This document shows positions 9,800 to 58,163 of a stretch of DNA of 64,000 nt, piece after piece. A program made the translations under genes and the position numbers. The DNA is from Acutalibacteraceae bacterium (GTDB taxonomy: Bacteria > Bacillota > Clostridia > Oscillospirales > Acutalibacteraceae): the NCBI GenBank assembly GCA_045627825.1, contig JAZQON010000052.1, positions 57,380 to 121,379 of the forward strand. The letters run 5' to 3'. The notes under the pieces are model-generated. The model saw nothing but the letters and a program-made list of their open reading frames with translations. It was not told the DNA's origin and searched no databases. Each line of letters opens with the position of its first letter. The first letter of the stretch is position 1.

Positions 9800-11005
9800 T
9801 TGAATAAGAAAATATCTGTCGGTTTATGCCTTTCTCTGGTTATTATTGCCATTGCCGCCACATTCACCGGAACAATGGTGGCTTCAAAGCAGATATATAA
9901 CGGCATAATCAATAATATTTCTCAGCGTTCACAAACCTATGAATCCGTTGACGAAATAAGCAAGATTATATCAAGCTATTTTTACGGCAGTGTTGATGAC
10001 AGAAACCGCCTTAACAGCGCACTTGCAGAGGGTTATGTTAACGGTCTCGGAGATTCAAACAGCGTTTATCTGAGCGCTTCCGAGTATGCGGATTATACCG
10101 CCAAGCTCAACGGAGGGCTTACGGGAATAGGCATTGAGACCGCATATGATTACAGCAGGGGCGCTCTTGTGATTACGAATGTTTATCCCGATTCGCCTGC
10201 CGAAAAAGCGGAGCTTAAGGTATTCGACGAGATAACCGCCGTGAACGATATAACCGTTACAAGAAGCAATTATACGGCGCTCCGTGAGAAATTTTACGGA
10301 AACCGCCTTACATCTGTTCGGATTGAATACGAAAGAGACGGCGACACAAAGGTTGTTGAACCGCTTCTCGGATTTTCGATTCCGAGTGTTACGGGATATC
10401 TTAACGGAAATGTAGGTTATATCAGGATAAACGGATTTTTCAAAAATACCGCCGATGAATTCAAAACCCTCATCACAAAGCTTCGTGATGAGGGAGCGGA
10501 AAGCGTTATTTTCGATGTCAGGGGTACTTCGGAGGGAACGGTTGACTATGCCGCAAAGGTGATAGATGTTATCGTTCCGGCAATATCCGGAAATATTGCC
10601 GTTGCAAAGGATAAGAACGGCAATGTATATAAGGATAAAATTTATACCGCCGAAAACAGCAGTTTTATTATGCCGAGCGTTGTGCTGATAAACTCATATA
10701 CCAAGGGTGCGGCTGAGCTTTTCGCCTGCGATATGAGGGATATCAATCAGGCACAGCTTGTGGGAACAAAGACTGCCGGAGTAGGCACAATGCAGGAGCT
10801 TTTTGCTCTTGAGGACGGCGGTGCGGTATTGCTTACCGTTGCACTCGTTGAGCCTAAGGGCGGCGCAGATGCCGTATATGAGGGCATCGGAGTTGCTCCC
10901 ACCGTTGAGATTACTCTCAGCCACGGTGATGAATCAAACTTCGCACTTCTGACCGCCGAGCAGGATAATCAGCTTTCAGCGGCATTCAATATGCTTTCGG
11001 CGTAA
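9800..11005 (+). CDS. S41 (C-terminal processing peptidase, CtpA/CtpB-like) homolog with PDZ domain, apparently catalytically inactive
   Basis: TTG start 9 nt after AGGAGA. N-terminal TM, PDZ (GIGIE...VITNVYPDSPAEKAEL) and an S41 core. The GSASASE and FGKG motifs read YTKGAAE and AGVG, so Ser becomes Gly303 and Lys becomes Val328. Confidence 0.8.
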   Translation: MNKKISVGLCLSLVIIAIAATFTGTMVASKQIYNGIINNISQRSQTYESVDEISKIISSYFYGSVDDRNRLNSALAEGYVNGLGDSNSVYLSASEYADYTAKLNGGLTGIGIETAYDYSRGALVITNVYPDSPAEKAELKVFDEITAVNDITVTRSNYTALREKFYGNRLTSVRIEYERDGDTKVVEPLLGFSIPSVTGYLNGNVGYIRINGFFKNTADEFKTLITKLRDEGAESVIFDVRGTSEGTVDYAAKVIDVIVPAISGNIAVAKDKNGNVYKDKIYTAENSSFIMPSVVLINSYTKGAAELFACDMRDINQAQLVGTKTAGVGTMQELFALEDGGAVLLTVALVEPKGGADAVYEGIGVAPTVEITLSHGDESNFALLTAEQDNQLSAAFNMLSA

Positions 11006-11009
11006 AAGT

Positions 11010-11600
11010 TTAAAATTTCCTTCTCAGCTCGGTTACTTTTCCTACTATCGTAACGGGCAGAGAAATGATATCCTCATTCATGTAAAACATCGGCTCATAA
11101 GCCGGATTTTCGGGCACCAGCATTATGCCGGTGTCCTTTTTTATTATTTTTTTAACCGTTGCATCGTTGCCATTGACAAGCACAACGGCGATTTCTCCGT
11201 TTTCAATATCGGGCTGACGGCGAACAATAACCGTGTCTCCGTCTCTGAATAGCGGAAACATACTGTCGCCTTTTATTTTCAGTCCGAAATATTCGCCCTT
11301 TGAGGCGATATCAGCGCTAATTTCTTCGTAATCCAATATATCCTCTATTGCCTCCATCGGTATTCCCGCTCTCACATATCCGAGAACGGGAATTGTTATT
11401 TTTTCGTCAAAATCCTCACTGCCGATAAGCTTGCCTACCGATATGCCGAAAATTTTCGAAAGTGTCAGCAAGCTGTTGTTATCGGGTGAGGTTTTTCCTT
11501 TTTCCCATTGACTGACTGCCGTCTGGTGAACATGGCATAACTCTGCAAGCTCACGCTGAGAAAGATTTTTCTGCTTTCTCAATTCTTTTATTATTTCCAT
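11010..11600 (-). CDS. XRE-HTH / S24 peptidase repressor (phage CI / LexA-like, autocleavable)
   Basis: N-terminal HTH_XRE (KNLSQRELAELCHVHQTAVSQWEKGKTSP), Ala-Gly cleavage context (VRAGIP), S24 Ser (GDSMFP) and Lys (TVKKI). Confidence 0.9.
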   Translation of the reverse strand: MEIIKELRKQKNLSQRELAELCHVHQTAVSQWEKGKTSPDNNSLLTLSKIFGISVGKLIGSEDFDEKITIPVLGYVRAGIPMEAIEDILDYEEISADIASKGEYFGLKIKGDSMFPLFRDGDTVIVRRQPDIENGEIAVVLVNGNDATVKKIIKKDTGIMLVPENPAYEPMFYMNEDIISLPVTIVGKVTELRRKF

Positions 11601-11610
11601 ATTTTCCTCC

Positions 11611-11628
11611 TGCCGCCTTAAGGCGGCA
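11611..11628. promoter_or_regulatory. Perfect 18-bp palindrome abutting the repressor gene's Shine-Dalgarno sequence
   Basis: TGCCGCCTTAAGGCGGCA lies directly 5' (in mRNA sense) of GGAGG-N6-ATG of the 11010-11600 gene. Candidate operator or 5'-UTR hairpin. Confidence 0.4.
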
Positions 11629-11652
11629 TATCTACATCTTATTCACGCCTAT

Positions 11653-11681
11653 ATTATGAGCTAAACTATTGAAAATGTCAA
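11653..11681 (-). promoter_or_regulatory. Candidate promoter of the XRE/S24 repressor gene
   Basis: On the minus strand: TTGACA (rc of 11676-11681), 17-nt spacer, CATAAT (rc of 11653-11658). Confidence 0.55.
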
Positions 11682-11710
11682 CAATTTTTTCCAAATGATG
11701 AAAAATTCTC

Positions 11711-11739
11711 TTGACAATCGAACAGATGTTCGTTATAAT
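11711..11739 (+). promoter_or_regulatory. Consensus sigma-A promoter of the lysis cassette
   Basis: TTGACA (11711-11716), 17-nt spacer, TATAAT (11734-11739). It lies about 26 nt upstream of the GGTGGTG RBS and the TTG start at 11773. Confidence 0.8.
11719..11732. promoter_or_regulatory. SOS (Cheo) box, predicted LexA operator
   Basis: CGAACAGATGTTCG matches the Gram-positive consensus CGAACRNRYGTTCG at every position. It sits entirely inside the -35/-10 spacer. Confidence 0.75.
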
Positions 11740-11772
11740 CAATAGCATAACTCTTAAAAAGGTGGTGACAAA

Positions 11773-12405
11773 TTGGAAAGAAGTCTGTTGACGGAAGAAG
11801 AATATTTCGTTTTTCCGTCAGAGGAAGAGATTCAGGCGGCTCAGGGGGCGTGCTGCGGAAGATGCTGTTCGGCGTGCGAAACGCCTGCCGCTTATGCATG
11901 GCGCAAGCGTGATATTGATATGTCGGTTCTGCTTGAAACAGCCGTTAAAAACGAGCTTTCGGAAACGGAAAGAAAAATGATAGAGGAGTATTTTTATAAT
12001 TCCAAAAAGCTTGTAACAATTGCCGCAGAAAGAGGAGTGAGCGGTGCGGCGGCAGGAAAAAGTCTTGAAAGAGCGCTTGAAAAGCTTCGCAATGCGCTTA
12101 AATATGTTGTGATGTATCAACATATCTGTGCCGATGAAAGCATTATTCCGCTTGCCGTACGCAGGGCAGCGGCAATTGCTCAGGCAAGAAAAACCGGCGG
12201 CGAAACCGTGGGTGAAAGACTTCTGAGCCTTAGAATGCGTGAAAATCTTTCCCGTAAAACGGTTGAAGAAATTCTCGGAATAGAGCCTGCACGGCTCGGA
12301 TATATAGAGCGTGACGAAAAGGATATTTCCGGAGCGGAGCTTATAATGCTGAGCGGATTTTACGGTGTTTCAGTCGATTACATATTGAAAGGAGAAAACC
12401 GATGA
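11773..12405 (+). CDS. Dual-HTH regulator: Cys-rich N-terminus, sigma-70 region-4-like HTH and C-terminal XRE HTH
   Basis: TTG start after GGTGGTG. CCGRCCSAC cluster at aa 27-35. LSETERKMIEEYF...TIAAERGVSGAAAGKSLERALEKLR resembles sigma-70 region 4. GERLLSLRMRENLSRKTVEEILGIEPARLGYIERDEKDIS is XRE-like. Confidence 0.65.
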   Translation: MERSLLTEEEYFVFPSEEEIQAAQGACCGRCCSACETPAAYAWRKRDIDMSVLLETAVKNELSETERKMIEEYFYNSKKLVTIAAERGVSGAAAGKSLERALEKLRNALKYVVMYQHICADESIIPLAVRRAAAIAQARKTGGETVGERLLSLRMRENLSRKTVEEILGIEPARLGYIERDEKDISGAELIMLSGFYGVSVDYILKGENR

Positions 12406-12659
12406 CGGATAAAAATGAGCTTTTAAGGCTCGGTGAGGAATATGATGCGGCGGCGGATATAGTTAAGGAGAGAATAGCGGAAAGGCTGAGAAAGCTCAGA
12501 ATACTCCGTGCCGCAGGGAAAATGCTTACCGATGATGCATATATTCTCAAAAGCGAGCTTAACCAGCTTTACAGAGAATATAACGATGCGGTCAACACGG
12601 CTTCATATCTTAAAAATTATTATTCCGATAAAGAAACAATAGAAAAATTACTTGTATAG
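12402..12659 (+). CDS. Hypothetical 85-aa helical / coiled-coil protein
   Basis: ATGA overlap with the upstream gene. Charged helical sequence with no recognised family. Confidence 0.55.
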   Translation: MTDKNELLRLGEEYDAAADIVKERIAERLRKLRILRAAGKMLTDDAYILKSELNQLYREYNDAVNTASYLKNYYSDKETIEKLLV

Positions 12660-12669
12660 GAGTTGAATA

Positions 12670-13425
12670 ATCATAAATAAAAAAATCTGTATTGCTGTCG
12701 GACACGGCAAATCGGTCAGCGGCGGCTATGACAGCGGTGCCGTCAGCAGGGACGGCAAATATCACGAATTTAAAATTGCAAAGGAAATTGCAAAATATGC
12801 TTCGGAATATCTCGGATGCGACCTGATGAATTATAACGGCGACATTTATCTTGTTGACAGAATAAAGAAAATCAATGCGGCGGATTATGATTTCGTTGCG
12901 GAAATTCATCTTAATGCAGGCGGCGGAACGGGAACGGAAACCTATTATTATCACGGTTCTCCCACCGGCAAAAAGGCTGCCGATGTGATATGCAAAAATA
13001 TTTCCGAAGCGCTTGCGGTAAGAAACAGAGGGGCAAAAATCAGGCTCGGCAAAAACGGGACGGATTATTTCGGATTTATCAGACAGACAAAGCCCTGCGC
13101 CGTGCTGATTGAAACGGCGTTTATTGATAATTCCGATGACCTTGCGAAAATCAGAACCGTGCAGGGGATGAAAGACTGCGGAATCGCAATCGGCAGAGCG
13201 CTTGAATCCGTGCTGATGGGCGGCGGCAATCCGTTTGAGGTTGAGGTTTCGTGCCTGAGCCTGAATATCCGAAAGGGCGCCGGAATGGAATATCCCGTTT
13301 GCGGTTATCTCAGAAACGGCAACAAGGTCAAAATTGATAAAACCGATGAAAACGGCAGATGGGGAAGGCTTTCCGACGGCAGGGGCTGGATAAACATCAC
13401 CGATAAATATGTAAGGAGAAAATAA
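12670..13425 (+). CDS. N-acetylmuramoyl-L-alanine amidase (Amidase_3) + SH3b endolysin with a non-canonical start
   Basis: The frame opens after TGA at 12664-12666. The conserved N-terminus KKICIAVGHGKSVSGGYDSGAVS lies upstream of the first ATG (12826). AGGAG (12658-12662) sits 7 nt before ATC 12670. C-terminal SH3b-like NIRKGAGMEYPV...GRWGRLSDGRGWI. Confidence 0.8.
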   Translation: MINKKICIAVGHGKSVSGGYDSGAVSRDGKYHEFKIAKEIAKYASEYLGCDLMNYNGDIYLVDRIKKINAADYDFVAEIHLNAGGGTGTETYYYHGSPTGKKAADVICKNISEALAVRNRGAKIRLGKNGTDYFGFIRQTKPCAVLIETAFIDNSDDLAKIRTVQGMKDCGIAIGRALESVLMGGGNPFEVEVSCLSLNIRKGAGMEYPVCGYLRNGNKVKIDKTDENGRWGRLSDGRGWINITDKYVRRK

Positions 13426-13426
13426 A

Positions 13427-13627
13427 ATGGACTGGAACTTACTGTTTTCTTTTCTCGGTTCCGCAATCGGGTGCGTTGCAGGTATTCTTGCTTCGCAGAA
13501 GCTCACAAATTACCGTCTCGAACAGCTCGAAATAAAGGTGAATAAGCATAATAACCTTGTTGAGCGTATGACGGTCAGCGAGATGAAAATAAAATCAATT
13601 GAAGAAAGGATAAACCATAATGATTAA
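13427..13627 (+). CDS. Small membrane protein (N-terminal TM + coiled coil), possible holin accessory in the XhlA position
   Basis: AAGGAGA RBS. TM segment WNLLFSFLGSAIGCVAGILA followed by a heptad-like LEQLEIKVNKHNNLVERMTVSEMKIKSIEERI. Confidence 0.6.
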   Translation: MDWNLLFSFLGSAIGCVAGILASQKLTNYRLEQLEIKVNKHNNLVERMTVSEMKIKSIEERINHND

Positions 13628-13862
13628 AAAAATACTCGGAAGAATTTCGGAAATTGCCCCGGGAACATGGGTAAGGCTTGCTCTGCTTATTGCCGCACTT
13701 GTGAATACCTCGGTAAAGCTCATCGGCGGTAATGAAAGCTTTGAAAATGTGACCGCAGTGGTGGTTATGGTGGTTACTGCTCTTACGGCTTATTGGAAAA
13801 ATAATTCTTTTACCGAAGCGGCAATTGCGGCGGATGAGATTATGAAAAGTCTCAAAAAGTAA
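13620..13862 (+). CDS. XhlB / SPP1-family phage holin
   Basis: GTWVRLALLIAALVNTSVKLIG and TALTAYWKNNSFTEAA resemble B. subtilis XhlB as I remember it (GTVIRTVLLLIALINQ..., AAWFKNNYVTEKG). Two TMs. 8-nt overlap with the previous ORF. Confidence 0.75.
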   Translation: MIKKILGRISEIAPGTWVRLALLIAALVNTSVKLIGGNESFENVTAVVVMVVTALTAYWKNNSFTEAAIAADEIMKSLKK

Positions 13863-13936
13863 TTGTTAAATTACACTAAAATCCAATGCGTATAATGTTA
13901 AAAATACACAAAAAAATAATTCAAATCAATTTCTTC

Positions 13937-13965
13937 TTGACTTATTGCGTTTTCTGAAAGATAAT
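13937..13965 (+). promoter_or_regulatory. Candidate promoter for the M28 peptidase gene
   Basis: TTGACT (13937-13942), 17-nt spacer, GATAAT (13960-13965). Confidence 0.45.
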
Positions 13966-13997
13966 TATAAGTAATAAATATACAGGGAGAGATTTAT

Positions 13998-15242
13998 ATG
14001 GATTTCAGCAACATTATCGCAAAGAAAAGAACATATGCAAATTTCATGGTAAAAGAAATTACCAAAATTTGCACGAAGTTTGAAAAGCGTGGTCCCGGCT
14101 CAAAGGGTGAGGAGCAGGCGTGCGAATATATGGCAAAATATCTTAAGGAAGCTTGCGGATGCGAGAGAGCCGATGTTGAATCGTTCAAAGAAAATCCCGG
14201 CTCATTCTTCGGCTGGATTTATATCACGATTTCCTGCGTGCTTCTTGCTATGGTTCTGGTTCTCGTTAACCATGCCGCAAAAACAGTTATTCTGCCGATA
14301 ATTGCGGCTGTTCTCATCGTTTTCGGACTTGCGCTTGCAGTTCTTCAGTTCGGTATGTATAAAAAAGCGGTTGACTTCCTCTTCCCCGAAAAGACAGGTC
14401 ATAATGTAACCGCTATCAAAAAGCCCACCGGTGAAGTTAAGAGAAGAATAGTTTTCAACGGTCACCCCGATGCAGCATGGGAATGGCCCGTTAACTATGC
14501 TCTCGGCGGCGTAGGCTTTGAATCACACGCAATCATCTGCGCTCTCGGTGCAGTTTTCTATCTTGTTATCGCTATCCTTTCGGCTAAAGCCGGAGCAATT
14601 GAAGGCGCTCTCTTCAAAACAGCTCTCTGGGGACTTTTCTTCACCCCGTTCCTCATCGGTCTCTATTTCATGTGGAATAAGAACAGAATAGTTGACGGCG
14701 CAAACGATAACCTTTCAGGTTGCTATATGGGTATTGCAATCCTCAAGGCTCTCAAGGATGAGGGCATTGAGCTTGAGAATACCGAAATCGGCGTTGTTCT
14801 TACCGGCTCGGAGGAAGCAGGTCTCAGAGGTGCAAAAGCATGGTGCGAGGCTCACAAGGGTGAGTTTGATGATGTTCCCACTTTCATTTATTCATATGAT
14901 ACCATTCACGACCCCAAATATCTCATGACAAATTACCGTGACCTTAACGCTACCGTTAAAGCCGATAAGGATGTTTCCGACCTCTTTATGGAGTGCGCAA
15001 AGGACCTCGATATCAGATGCCTTAAGGGTATGGTTCCTCCTCTCGGCGGTGCTACCGATTCAGCGGCATTTGCTCAGGCAGGCTTCAGAGCAACCGGTAT
15101 TACGGGTCTTAACCACAAGCTTGAAAACTACTATCACACCAGAAGAGACTCCTATGATAATATGAATGTTGACGGACTTGCGGATTGCTTCGCAGTCAGC
15201 GTTAAGGTTCTTGAGGAGTTTGACAAGGGCGCAAAACAGTAA
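13998..15242 (+). CDS. Membrane-embedded M28-family metallopeptidase
   Basis: M28 motifs HPDAAWEW, NDNLSGC and TGSEEAGLRGAKAW, with several internal TM helices. Confidence 0.8.
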   Translation: MDFSNIIAKKRTYANFMVKEITKICTKFEKRGPGSKGEEQACEYMAKYLKEACGCERADVESFKENPGSFFGWIYITISCVLLAMVLVLVNHAAKTVILPIIAAVLIVFGLALAVLQFGMYKKAVDFLFPEKTGHNVTAIKKPTGEVKRRIVFNGHPDAAWEWPVNYALGGVGFESHAIICALGAVFYLVIAILSAKAGAIEGALFKTALWGLFFTPFLIGLYFMWNKNRIVDGANDNLSGCYMGIAILKALKDEGIELENTEIGVVLTGSEEAGLRGAKAWCEAHKGEFDDVPTFIYSYDTIHDPKYLMTNYRDLNATVKADKDVSDLFMECAKDLDIRCLKGMVPPLGGATDSAAFAQAGFRATGITGLNHKLENYYHTRRDSYDNMNVDGLADCFAVSVKVLEEFDKGAKQ

Positions 15243-44009: not shown

Positions 44010-44060
44010 TTCGGAATTCGGAATTTATGACGGGTTTCACCCGTACCCAATTATATAACT
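44008..44060. repeat. Modular repeat copy: CGGAATT heptamers plus hairpin module
   Basis: AATTCGGAATTCGGAATT, then GACGGGTTTCACCCGTACCCAATTATATAAC. It matches the 30003-30035 copy (reverse complement) at 23 of 29 positions, including TACCC and ATTATATA. Confidence 0.75.
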
Positions 44061-44070
44061 GTAAATTTAA

Positions 44071-44121
44071 AGCCTTTAACTTCTGAACATACAATGAGTT
44101 GTTTTTCAGAAGTTAAAGGCT
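44071..44121. terminator. Bidirectional terminator between mutS2 and htpG
   Basis: Perfect 17-bp arms AGCCTTTAACTTCTGAA (44071-44087) and TTCAGAAGTTAAAGGCT (44105-44121). The arms themselves contain the AACTTCT motif. Confidence 0.7.
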
Positions 44122-44143
44122 ATAATATTGCTTGTATAAAATT

Positions 44144-44205
44144 GGCGCTTGCGCCCCTTAATTCGGAATTCCGAATTAAAATCAGAGTGGGCGAAACCGG
44201 TTCTC
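44144..44205. repeat. Second modular repeat copy at the mutS2/htpG junction
   Basis: GGCGCTTGCGCC palindrome, AATTCGGAATTCCGAATT (44160-44177), and GTGGGCGAAACCGGTT hairpin module. The reverse complement aligns over about 44 nt with 36870-36913. Confidence 0.7.
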
Positions 44206-44213
44206 TGAAATTC

Positions 44214-46103
44214 TTATTTTACCATCAGCTCACAGATAAGTCTGCTGTGCTCAACCGGGTCATCAACGGGCTTTCCGCCGATGAGACACGCTTCGCCGTA
44301 AAGAAGCTTTGCATATTTGCCGAGAGTTTCTTTATCGTCTGCAAACAGCGCTTTCAGTTTCTCTGCCACGGGGTGCTTTGCGTTGATTTCAAGAACTATT
44401 TGTGCCTTTACCTTTTGGTCTGCACCCGGCATTGAATTGAGCGTTTTTTCCATTTCAAGCGAAATGCCGCCCTCGGTTGTAAGGCAAACGGGGTGATTAT
44501 TCAGCTTGCCCGTAAAGCGTACTGTCGAAACGCCGTCACCGATGGCGTTTTTCATTTCCTCAAACATATCCTTTGAATCGGCGTTTTCCGCTTCAAGCTC
44601 TTTCTTTTCGTCCTCGGAATCAAGGTCAAGCTGTTCATCGCAGATGTTTATGAATTCTTTATCCTCATATTTGCCGAGCATTTTAAGTGCGAATTCGTCA
44701 ACATATTCGGTGAGATAAAGAATTTCAAAGCCCTTTTCCTTAACGGCGTCACACTGCGGAAGCATTTCAATTTTCTCGGCGGTTTCGCCGCAGGCGTAGT
44801 AAATGGCTTTCTGCCCGGCACCCATTCTTTCAACATATTCTTTAAGAGTAACAAGCTTCTTTTCATTGGATGATGTGAACATAATAAGCTCTTTTACGGC
44901 ATCCTTATTTGCGCCGTAGTTATCATATACGCCGAATTTCAGGCGGATACCGAAGCTCTTAAAAAACTCCTCATATGCCTCACGCTCGTTTTTGAGCATT
45001 TTTTCAAGCTCACTCTTGATTTTCTTTTCAATCGTTTTGGCTATGAGCTTTAACTGACCGTCATGCTGGAGCATTTCACGGGATATATTGAGCGATAAAT
45101 CCTCGCTGTCAACAAGACCCTTGACGAAGCTGAAATAATCGGGAAGCAGGTCGGCGCATTTTTCCATAATCAGAACGCCTTTTGAATAAAGCTGAAGTCC
45201 CTTTTCGAAATCCTTGGTGTAATAATCAAACGGAGGACGCTTCGGAACGAACATCAGCGCATGATATGTTGCCTGACCCTCAACGCTTGTATGGATTACC
45301 TTTGCCGGGTCTTCAAAATCATAGAATTTTTCTTTATAGAAATTGTTGTATTCCTCGGCTGTTATTTCCGAACGGTTCTTCTTCCAGAGAGGTATTCTGC
45401 TGTTGAGCGTTCTTTCCTCTTTAACTTCTTCATATTCTCCCTCTTCGCCGCCCTCAACGGGTTTTGATGTGGTGAACTCCATCTTAATAGGGTGGCGAAT
45501 ATAATCGGAATATTTCTTTATAAGAGCGCTTATTCTGTATTGGTCAAGGAAATCGCTGTACTTTTCGTCTTCGGTATCCTCTTTGATGTGCATGGTGACA
45601 ATTGTTCCGAAGCCGTCCTTTTCGCAGGAACCTATCTTATAGCCGTCCGCTCCCTCGGATTCCCAGATGAAAGCTTCATCGCTTCCGAAAGCCTTGGTTT
45701 CAACCGTAACCTTATCGCTGACCATGAATGCCGAATAGAAGCCGACACCGAACTGACCTATAATATCAACATTCTCTGCTTTCTCGTTTTCGTTTTTGAA
45801 AGCGAGAGAGCCGCTTTTGGCAATCGTTCCGAGATTTGTGTCAAGCTCCTCCTCGGTCATGCCGCATCCGTTATCAATAACACGGATAAGGCGGTTTTCC
45901 TCGTCAAGCTCAATGCGGATAACGAAATCCTCCGCTCCGAGACCGACCGATGAATCTGTGAGCGAGCGGAAATAGAGCTTATCAAGCGCATCGGAAGCAT
46001 TTGAAATTATTTCACGCAGAAAAATTTCCTTGTGAGTGTAAATTGAATTTATCATCATATCCATAAGACGCCTGGATTCCGATTTAAACTGTTTTGTTTT
46101 CAT
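44214..46103 (-). CDS. htpG: Molecular chaperone HtpG (Hsp90)
   Basis: FKSESRRLMDMMINSIYTHKEIFLREIISNASDALDK and GQFGVGFYSAFMV motifs. Confidence 0.97.
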   Translation of the reverse strand: MKTKQFKSESRRLMDMMINSIYTHKEIFLREIISNASDALDKLYFRSLTDSSVGLGAEDFVIRIELDEENRLIRVIDNGCGMTEEELDTNLGTIAKSGSLAFKNENEKAENVDIIGQFGVGFYSAFMVSDKVTVETKAFGSDEAFIWESEGADGYKIGSCEKDGFGTIVTMHIKEDTEDEKYSDFLDQYRISALIKKYSDYIRHPIKMEFTTSKPVEGGEEGEYEEVKEERTLNSRIPLWKKNRSEITAEEYNNFYKEKFYDFEDPAKVIHTSVEGQATYHALMFVPKRPPFDYYTKDFEKGLQLYSKGVLIMEKCADLLPDYFSFVKGLVDSEDLSLNISREMLQHDGQLKLIAKTIEKKIKSELEKMLKNEREAYEEFFKSFGIRLKFGVYDNYGANKDAVKELIMFTSSNEKKLVTLKEYVERMGAGQKAIYYACGETAEKIEMLPQCDAVKEKGFEILYLTEYVDEFALKMLGKYEDKEFINICDEQLDLDSEDEKKELEAENADSKDMFEEMKNAIGDGVSTVRFTGKLNNHPVCLTTEGGISLEMEKTLNSMPGADQKVKAQIVLEINAKHPVAEKLKALFADDKETLGKYAKLLYGEACLIGGKPVDDPVEHSRLICELMVK

Positions 46104-57101: not shown

Positions 57102-58163
57102 ATGCCGTTATTCAAATTGATTATTGCGTTCTTTCTTTCATTTGTTCAGTTTTTCAGTCCGTTTTTTGCCATGCTCAACGGCGGAATAGATTCATTCTAT
57201 GATAAATGGTCTGAAAACGATACATATACAGCCGATTATGCAATCGAGCTTAAAAAAAATCCGGACAAGGATTTTGTTGTTCTTAATTTTGCCGATATTC
57301 AGCTCAGCGGACTTGATGTTTACAATGAGAAAGCGGATATCGCCGCAAAGACGATTGATAAGGCGATAAAAGCAACAAATCCCGACCTTATCACGCTTAC
57401 GGGTGACAACGGTTCGGGAAAGATGGCTTATATCGAAATGATTAAGGTTATTGATTCCTACGGTATTCCCTGGGCTCCGGTTATGGGTAACCACGACGGC
57501 GAAAACGGCAAGAGAGTAGATGAAGCCTGGTGCGGATGGCAGCTTGAAAATGCCGAAAACTGCCTTTTCAAATTCGGACCTGAGGGTATGGGCGTAGGTA
57601 ACTATGTTATCAATATTACCGAGAACGGAAGAATAATCCACACTCTTTATATGATGGATACTCATTCGAGCACCGATAAGGAATGCGGTGGCTATGACCA
57701 TCTCTGGGATAATCAGCTTAAGTGGTATGAATGGGCGGTTAAGGGCACAAATGCAATAGCCGGAACGAATGTTGAAAGCTCGATATTCTTTCATATTCCC
57801 TGCATTCAGTACAGAGATGCGTGGAAAGCGGTTTACGATGATGAAGCGAAGCAGTTCAAGCAGGAATATTATTCAAACGGTAATTTCGGCAAGAATGACG
57901 AGGGCATCTGCTCTCCCGAATATGACAGCGGTTTCTTTGCACTTGTAAAGTCACTCGGAAGCACAAAGAATATGGTGGCAGGTCACGACCATTCAAACGA
58001 TTCATCTATTCTTTATGACGGAATACGCCTTTCCTACGGCTTGAAGTGCGGCAAGGGCAGTTATACATTTGACGGCAAAAACGGCGGCTCAACTCTTACA
58101 ATCGGTTCAGACGGTCACGCCGACTTTGCACATTATTATGTTGATATTGATACTCTTGACTGA
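57102..58163 (+). CDS. Secreted or membrane-anchored calcineurin-like metallophosphoesterase
   Basis: Signal/TM N-terminus. Motifs LTGDNG, GNHDG and AGHDH. Confidence 0.8.
   Translation: MPLFKLIIAFFLSFVQFFSPFFAMLNGGIDSFYDKWSENDTYTADYAIELKKNPDKDFVVLNFADIQLSGLDVYNEKADIAAKTIDKAIKATNPDLITLTGDNGSGKMAYIEMIKVIDSYGIPWAPVMGNHDGENGKRVDEAWCGWQLENAENCLFKFGPEGMGVGNYVINITENGRIIHTLYMMDTHSSTDKECGGYDHLWDNQLKWYEWAVKGTNAIAGTNVESSIFFHIPCIQYRDAWKAVYDDEAKQFKQEYYSNGNFGKNDEGICSPEYDSGFFALVKSLGSTKNMVAGHDHSNDSSILYDGIRLSYGLKCGKGSYTFDGKNGGSTLTIGSDGHADFAHYYVDIDTLD

Follow-up and report, generated by a model that had tools for sequence, protein, structure and literature searches.

A predicted LexA operator and a second, repressor-linked palindrome at the promoter of a small phage-type lysis operon conserved in a genus of gut Acutalibacteraceae

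The locus described here lies in a stretch of 64,000 nucleotides (referred to below as the window) from an Acutalibacteraceae bacterium, corresponding to positions 57,380 to 121,379 of contig JAZQON010000052.1; in public records this lineage consists of metagenome-assembled genomes from animal guts. Between positions 11010 and 13862 of the window, a gene for a repressor with an XRE-type helix-turn-helix (HTH) and an S24 peptidase domain is divergent from five genes encoding a 210-aa regulator (reg210), an 85-aa helical protein (p85), an endolysin, a 66-aa protein (p66), and a holin. The region between them contains a leftward promoter for the repressor gene, P_rep, and a rightward promoter for the other five, P_reg. 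The spacer of P_reg holds a motif of the type recognized by LexA in Firmicutes, known as a Cheo or SOS box, and a different palindrome occurs at both promoters (O_R at P_reg and O_L at P_rep). The arrangement of these sites, and their distribution in related genomes, point towards a promoter that is probably controlled by both host LexA and the local repressor.

P_reg (11711-11739, plus strand) is a consensus sigma-A-type promoter with TTGACA at 11711-11716, a 17-nt spacer, and TATAAT at 11734-11739. Read letter by letter, TTGACA is followed by ‘at’ (11717-11718), the strand-less box CGAACAGATGTTCG (11719-11732), a single ‘t’ (11733), and TATAAT. In a simple promoter scan this was a 12/12 match to the sigma-70-type consensus, and the only 12/12 site within 10900-14200. 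The box fits the extended consensus CGAACRNRYGTTCG, a GAAC-N4-GTTC palindrome, with 0 mismatches. These observations confirm two claims of a preliminary description of this DNA, namely that a perfect Cheo box lies in the spacer of a TTGACA-17-TATAAT promoter, and that the 14-mer agrees with the consensus throughout. The box is the sole occurrence of CGAAC-N4-GTTCG in the window, even when up to one mismatch is allowed, and the same scan bears out the further statement that the promoter region of the repressor (11601-11710) contains none. The position of the box at 11719-11732 is that of a LexA operator overlapping a core promoter, and the box fills the 17-nt spacer, so a bound LexA dimer would be expected to keep RNA polymerase off.

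The number of such boxes was considered as evidence and rejected, because counts in the window and in the genome are at chance level. Shuffled versions of the window gave 1.64 matches to CGAAC-N4-GTTCG, and a scan of the complete 2.355-Mb genome, as proposed in the preliminary description, found 3 perfect copies compared with about 1.6 expected from base composition (GC 0.436). The remaining 2 copies are located inside coding sequence, according to crude open reading frame calls. What supports the box is instead its placement, together with comparison to other sites and other species. With respect to placement, simple arithmetic gives a joint expectation of about 5e-7 per genome for a box located exactly inside a perfect promoter.

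Comparison across the genus shows that the composite arrangement is widely shared. In about 20 species the reg210 orthologue, itself mostly only 35-50% identical, is preceded by a promoter of the form TTGACA-NN-(C/A)(G/A)AAC-N4-GTTC-N-N-TAnnAT. Within an alignment of 18 species the elements TTGAC, AAC, GTTC, and TA..AT are invariant, while the central four nucleotides of the box vary and the approximately 30 nt between the divergent promoters vary freely. In three species the box is displaced but kept: it lies over the −35 element in two of them (G035 and G019) and downstream of the −10 element in the third (G023).

A canonical LexA, for which the genome was also searched, is encoded on a different contig (C16, positions 44037-44627). 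This 196-aa protein is the only one with a LexA_DNA_bind winged-helix domain (PF01726, 54.7 bits), and scores 183.5 bits against the TIGR00498 equivalog model, which has a cut-off of 110.95. The promoter of its gene carries CAAACAAATGTTTG and TGAACATTTGTGCT immediately before the TATAAT, and the recA promoter carries AGAACATTTGTTTG after its −10 element, such that the same motif precedes both lexA and recA; the same two boxes are found at the lexA promoters of 4 other species in the genus. Clostridial LexA operators have been described as GAACnnnnGTTT/C, which is the same motif as here, and the operator of Clostridioides difficile recA used in binding assays was AGAACAAATGTTTG (PMC4234289). 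A weight matrix was constructed from the boxes of orthologous promoters in other species and scanned against this genome. The window box ranks second genome-wide, and 6 of the 7 best matches, including the top five, are in promoter-like settings. These matches comprise a promoter on contig C33 (TTGACAatCGAACATTTGTTTGcTATAAT) upstream of an XRE gene and a sigma-like gene, the window box upstream of the reg210 operon, a triple-box promoter at C52:38170 upstream of a small one-helix membrane protein, the recA and lexA promoters themselves, and a site on contig C57 (TTGACAgaTAAACAAATGTTCTgTATAAT) with no clear open reading frame downstream. The sites on C33 (22400-22460) and C57 (101950-101990) are two further promoters with the layout TTGACA-NN-box-N-TATAAT.

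These data bear on the simplest alternative, that the box is a chance palindrome in AT-rich intergenic DNA and binds nothing. The genomic and shuffled counts given above are what such a palindrome would produce, but its half-sites are invariant in 18 species while adjacent non-coding bases vary, it is positioned exactly inside a 12/12 promoter, and the same layout recurs at other SOS promoters of the genome. The conservation data refute this alternative in practice, and we give it practically no credence. The placement of the box in a perfect promoter and the genus-wide conservation of the composite are far beyond chance.

As a whole, the scan defines the LexA motif of this genus and a first SOS regulon, which includes lexA, recA, the gene for the small membrane protein, and two regulator operons. 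The triple-box promoter lies about 19 kb upstream of the window start (C52:38130-38260) and has the boxes TCGAACATTTGTAT, CAAACGAATGTTCG (which overlaps the −35 element), and AGAACAAATGTTTC; the protein that follows has one membrane helix (MGIGEIIRSVFEFALIVLTLV...) and is a candidate inhibitor of cell division during the SOS response. The C33 promoter drives a gene for a 261-aa XRE protein followed by one for a 212-aa sigma-like protein, with a serine recombinase fragment nearby.

The gene divergent from P_reg (11010-11600, minus strand) encodes a CI-like repressor of 196 aa, with an XRE HTH_3 domain (PF01381, 7e-17) and a Peptidase_S24 domain (PF00717, 1.4e-28). Among PHROGs it matches the phrog_4 transcriptional repressor (6e-44), and its HTH has a weak match to the RstR family model NF041951 (6e-13, below cut-off). 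The translation contains a VRAG cleavage motif, a GDSM serine, and a TVKK lysine; the protein thus combines the XRE HTH and S24 domain of a CI-like self-cleaving repressor with the Ala-Gly site and the Ser/Lys dyad, as judged from its sequence. It is distinct from LexA: the score against TIGR00498 is 93.8 bits (cut-off 110.95) and covers residues 65-195 only, and no PF01726 winged-helix match was found in the protein, the N-terminus of which is HTH_3. The preliminary description was therefore correct in identifying an S24 repressor with an XRE HTH rather than a winged-helix LexA. Its promoter, P_rep (11653-11681, minus strand), has TTGACA at 11681-11676, a 17-nt spacer, and CATAAT at 11658-11653, giving 11/12 matches; the GTCAA and the −10 element are conserved in the 18-species alignment.

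Two further observations concern this gene. A GC-rich hairpin, GCCGCCTTAAGGCGGC, at 11611-11628 abuts the ribosome-binding site of the repressor mRNA. It was considered as an operator and rejected: relatives (G005, G021, L043, and L044) have hairpins of differing sequence at the same place, and conservation of hairpin potential only makes a stem in the 5′-untranslated region of the RNA more likely than a DNA operator. Separately, the XRE/S24 homologue in G031 (L024 9116-9664) is shorter, at 182 aa, and the VRAG cleavage motif is seemingly missing, such that this version may not be RecA-cleavable.

Natural losses of each component in related species help to identify the protein that binds the box. 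Five loci without the XRE/S24 gene (G014, G003, G013, G035, and G023) retain the LexA box. In four other genomes (G008, G025, G006, and G009) the XRE/S24 gene and O_R are kept, and there is neither a box in the spacer nor a match to canonical LexA. Because the box is kept without XRE/S24 and is absent without canonical LexA, we infer that it is the operator of the host's canonical LexA. Across the genus the box is conserved at orthologous promoters in about 20 species and co-occurs with LexA; its absence where there is only a divergent LexA-like protein possibly reflects a single evolutionary event.

The preliminary description had raised a different arrangement, in which the XRE/S24 protein would act as the SOS regulator that binds the box and would form a divergent pair with its target in the manner of lexA and yneA in Bacillus subtilis. 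Such a protein would be an analogue of LexA comparable with HdiR. The protein does have a self-cleavage domain with the AG, Ser, and Lys motifs, and its gene adjoins the box. However, its own promoter lacks a box, the box is kept in 5 species from which the gene is absent and is missing in species that have the gene but no canonical LexA, a canonical LexA is present with the same motif at lexA and recA, and a different palindrome is common to both promoters beside the gene. Together with its failure to reach the threshold of the LexA equivalog model, these observations disfavour the XRE/S24 protein as the box binder, which would seem very improbable. The likeness to the lexA/yneA pair is superficial: the canonical lexA gene is on C16 and is not divergent from P_reg, and downstream of P_reg there are regulators and a phage-type lysis cassette, with no division inhibitor.

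The suggestion that the box-less species have no LexA whatsoever was rejected when a search with full-length LexA in G008 and G025 found, as the only LexA-like protein, one that is 28% identical to C16 LexA. This divergent protein has 216 aa (G008:C33:63633-64133, L080; G025:C6:54275-54775), with Cys-Gly at the expected Ala-Gly cleavage site. A palindrome common to the promoter of its gene and to P_reg was looked for in G008 and none was found.

The second palindrome, with the motif AATAG-N5-CT(A/C)TT, occurs once at each of the divergent promoters. O_R (AATAGCATAACTCTT, 11741-11755) directly follows the −10 element of P_reg and covers about −5 to +10 of that promoter, and O_L (ATGAGCTAAACTATT, 11656-11670) is in the P_rep spacer; both are strand-less. 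At both places, the half-sites, (A/T)(T/G)AG and CT(A/C)T(T/A), and their 5-nt spacing show little or no variation among 18 species: the pattern A..AG-N5-CT..T is invariant for O_R, and TAT.AG-N5-CT.TT is invariant or nearly so for O_L. In two closer relatives (L043 and L044), O_R is AAGAG-CATAA-CTCTT, in which both half-sites have changed symmetrically, as expected for the operator of a dimer. In 5/5 loci that lack XRE/S24, O_R is absent or decayed, as in G013, which has CGAAAGTGCTGCTAAAAC at the position of CAATAGTGCTGCTAATAC in its sister G020. The disappearance of O_R where XRE/S24 is absent suggests that it is probably the operator of that repressor. Counts of the palindrome were made in six genomes (G000, G005, G008, G025, G031, and G012). 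Perfect AATAG-N5-CTATT was present as 1 copy each in G031 and G012, both at O_R, and there were 0 copies in the other four; a reversed control pattern gave 17-37 per genome, although the scarcity of the palindrome is partly a composition effect of TAG/CTA.

O_L and O_R are conserved, unique in the genome, and linked to the presence of the gene, and XRE/S24 is predicted to bind O_L for autoregulation and O_R, where it would block P_reg at its start site. The preliminary description had proposed as its other arrangement a double RecA-sensitive lock formed by host LexA and the local repressor, and this now has comparative support from the canonical LexA, the shared motif at lexA and recA, the retention of the box without XRE/S24, and the separate palindrome that tracks XRE/S24.

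An alternative assignment retains LexA at the box but has AATAG-N5-CTATT bound by the XRE domain of reg210 in a Cro-like manner, or by both proteins, leaving LexA as the sole damage-sensitive lock on P_reg. The C-terminal HTH of reg210 is of the phage-repressor type, with matches to P22 c2, ImmR, and 434, and reg210 heads the rightward operon, where cro is usually found. The G031 homologue that seemingly lacks the Ala-Gly motif also fits, since LexA may there be the only inducible lock. O_R, however, is lost exactly where XRE/S24 is lost, even though reg210 is retained, which argues against reg210 as the main binder, and we regard this assignment as rather unlikely.

The operon behind P_reg starts with reg210 (11773-12405, plus strand), which has a TTG start codon after a GGTGGTG ribosome-binding site. 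The protein contains an N-terminal CCGRxCxxCE motif, a sigma-70 region-4-like HTH (a weak match), and the C-terminal XRE HTH. In a structure model with a mean pLDDT (predicted local distance difference test score) of 78, the C-terminal HTH is the only part that matches solved structures, and no full-length structural analogue was found among them. The CCGRxCxxCE motif (11851-11877, residues 27-35) and a PAxYAWRKR motif are invariant in 30 homologues, including cysteines C27, C28, C32, and C35; the cysteine cluster is a possible metal or redox site, in a part of the model that has low confidence. Full-length homologues of reg210 are present in 34/37 genomes of the same GTDB genus, most of them 35-50% identical and one 91% identical. 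None was found in other families of the order, or in the phage collections INPHARED and IMG/VR.

The gene for p85 (12402-12659, plus strand) overlaps the reg210 stop codon with its start (ATGA), and its helical product has no family match. The endolysin gene (12667-13425, plus strand) follows, encoding complete Amidase_3 and SH3_3 domains, with the match covering Amidase_3 profile positions 1-173 of 174; it belongs to phrog_435. The start of this frame (12657-12690) is unusual. After an in-frame TGA it opens with ATA ATC ATA, and there is no ATG, GTG, or TTG before the Amidase_3 domain; AGGAG is located 7 nt before the ATC. Relatives mostly start with ATG, GTG, or TTG, and a rare ATA or ATC start may throttle synthesis of the endolysin. 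N-terminal truncation was considered as an explanation and rejected: the frame is open from 12667 and the full Amidase_3 profile is covered.

The next gene encodes p66 (13427-13627, plus strand; phrog_1863), in which a single predicted membrane helix precedes a coiled coil. Its homologues are found in the lysis regions of Streptococcus and Enterococcus phages, and at 66-81% identity it is better conserved than any other protein of the cassette. The last gene (13620-13862, plus strand) encodes an SPP1-type holin of 80 aa (PF04688, 2.9e-13; phrog_263). A holin and a peptidoglycan hydrolase are therefore encoded together, as in phage lysis cassettes. The ends of neighbouring genes overlap or abut and no terminator-like site occurs between them, indicating that the five genes form one operon behind P_reg. 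No virion, integrase, or replication genes are present, and the module is limited to 11010-13862, unlike an intact prophage.

The flanks of the module are host genes, with ftsX, an M23 peptidase, and an S41 homologue upstream and an M28 peptidase downstream. The gene order kept in the genus is M23, S41, XRE/S24 divergent from reg210, p85, usually a gene for a protein of 300-375 aa, endolysin, p66, and holin. Most relatives have the 300-375-aa gene (for example, L005 2362-3267 and L009 2371-3498), but this genome and G005 lack it. Its product has a coiled-coil middle and the motif I-P-L-A-T-T-x-x-x-G-G-(I/V)-(K/R)-L. It has no Pfam or PHROG family, the 375-aa version is without a phage match, and the gene is possibly left over from a tail fibre, or else a cargo of the lysis cassette. 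In two species only, G029 and G022, tRNA-Val(GAC) is located directly after p85 (L021 2413-2488 and L013 2409-2484), and may mark where a phage attachment site once lay. A tRNA integration site at the present locus was rejected, given that the first 30 kb of the window contain no tRNA and that tRNA-Val follows p85 in two species only. Overall, the module looks like a prophage remnant that became fixed beside the M23 and S41 peptidase genes, at a single site of the chromosome, in the ancestor of the genus, and that has been retained since.

Sequence features, conservation, and co-occurrence lead us to favour a switch in which LexA on the box and XRE/S24 on O_R and O_L gate the lysis operon as an AND gate. 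We consider this reading likely, with the identity of the bound proteins, induction by damage, and the lysis phenotype predicted from those observations. In an undamaged cell, LexA would occupy the P_reg spacer and XRE/S24 the P_reg start site; the latter would shut the rightward promoter and regulate its own synthesis. DNA damage would activate RecA and promote self-cleavage of both repressors, allowing the operon to be transcribed. Both proteins have domains for RecA-stimulated self-cleavage, so P_reg would be expected to fire only when damage removes the two of them. The first products would be two regulators, followed in this genome by endolysin, p66, and holin, with lysis or wall opening of a heavily damaged cell as the likely outcome.

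Several observations weigh against this reading. The species without the box and without canonical LexA appear to form one subclade, and their co-loss may therefore be a single evolutionary event. One genome, G027, has the box but no LexA match, in an assembly that is 82% complete and in 430 contigs. As discussed above, the XRE domain of reg210 could instead, or also, bind O_R and O_L. In addition, reg210 has no homologue in INPHARED or IMG/VR, so a phage origin is shown only for the lysis genes and the type of repressor. Finally, three species (G031, G024, and G004) keep the repressor, the promoter, reg210, and p85 but do not have lysis genes, which suggests that the selected function may lie in the regulators and not in lysis.

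The last of these points is part of a wider alternative, in which P_reg is controlled by LexA and the selected role belongs to reg210 and p85 as SOS-induced transcription factors that act on targets elsewhere. The lysis genes would then be a dispensable or silenced passenger, with lysis kept low by the start of the endolysin gene. Such a role agrees with the presence of reg210 and p85 in 34/37 genomes, with the species that have lost the lysis genes, with an endolysin frame that has no ATG, GTG, or TTG start, and with the C33 promoter, an SOS promoter of the same design that drives another pair of XRE and sigma-like proteins. Against it, most species examined have intact and conserved genes for endolysin, p66, and holin, p66 being the most conserved of the cassette, and the lysis genes follow p85 in close translational packing without a terminator. 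Conservation of the lysis genes in most species points to selection on lysis as well, and we would give this alternative only a minor share of the probability.

A broader interpretation extends the AND gate to the whole genus. In this scheme a domesticated minimal prophage remnant, consisting of repressor, dual-HTH regulator, endolysin, and holin but no virion, would serve as a chromosomal, SOS AND-gated device for self-lysis or for the release of vesicles and DNA, and selection would have maintained it through more than 30 speciations. The subclade with a diverged LexA would have dropped the LexA input, leaving XRE/S24 alone to carry the damage signal. This interpretation is put forward tentatively, as one that may well prove wrong.

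The locus offers a clean case that lends itself to testing, with two repressors, both predicted to be RecA-sensitive, acting at a single promoter in an uncultured lineage of gut Firmicutes. Sister species act as natural ‘knock-outs’ of each input, which makes it possible to deduce the switch logic from genome sequences. If the cassette does lyse damaged cells, it would represent a host-owned route to the release of DNA, vesicles, or nutrients in the gut, and would parallel the explosive lysis that is linked to PBSX and to pyocins in model bacteria. LexA control of phage-derived lysis genes is already established, and the value of this case is therefore as a well-documented instance and not as a new mechanism.

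Different known systems share parts of this arrangement. In the CTX phage of Vibrio cholerae, the promoter PrstA is repressed jointly by host LexA and phage RstR, which provides a precedent for a promoter of a phage-derived element held by LexA together with an XRE-type repressor that the element encodes (PMC9502458). Unlike the present case, CTX is filamentous, infects a Gram-negative bacterium, and has another LexA motif; in the window, RecA-stimulated cleavage is predicted for both repressors, and the promoter serves an endolysin and holin cassette without a phage body. To our knowledge, RstR has no S24 self-cleavage domain. The Bacillus thuringiensis phage GIL01 is not known to have a CI-like repressor and uses a small co-repressor, gp7. 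It resembles the window in that a Firmicute LexA acts on GAAC-type boxes over early promoters, P1 and P2, and serves as the lysogeny repressor (PMC6182141). GIL01 differs in being a complete phage.

Within B. subtilis, PBSX (xre / xkdA, xpf, xhlA-xhlB-xlyA) likewise represents a defective prophage that is fixed in the chromosome and encodes an XRE repressor. A sigma-like protein acts as its positive regulator, and its lysis module, with an amidase and a holin, is induced by DNA damage; we know of no S24 domain in its Xre. The gene xkdA, which is located beside the repressor, is listed under lexA/SOS (PMC3896406). In contrast with the window, PBSX still makes particles; the regulator described here joins sigma region 4 and an XRE HTH in one protein, and its short operon also includes the lysis genes. 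The uviAB-bcn locus of Clostridium perfringens plasmids pIP404 and pBCNF5603 is also comparable, being inducible by ultraviolet light and mitomycin and having a putative LexA site, the sigma-type UviA, and a small release protein (PMC4459074, PMC10467148). That locus, however, is carried on plasmids and serves bacteriocin production, UviA is a complete sigma factor of the TcdR family, and no CI-like second repressor has been described for it.

The promoter design also resembles that of the SOS promoters of lexA, recA, and uvrB in B. subtilis and C. difficile, where GAAC-N4-GTT(C/T) lies over the core promoter (PMC4234289). Relative to these canonical Firmicute examples, the cargo here is not DNA repair, and the inferred operator of a second repressor is stacked on the promoter. 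What is distinctive about this locus is the combination of two self-cleaving repressors on one promoter, in a small remnant that is fixed across the genus.

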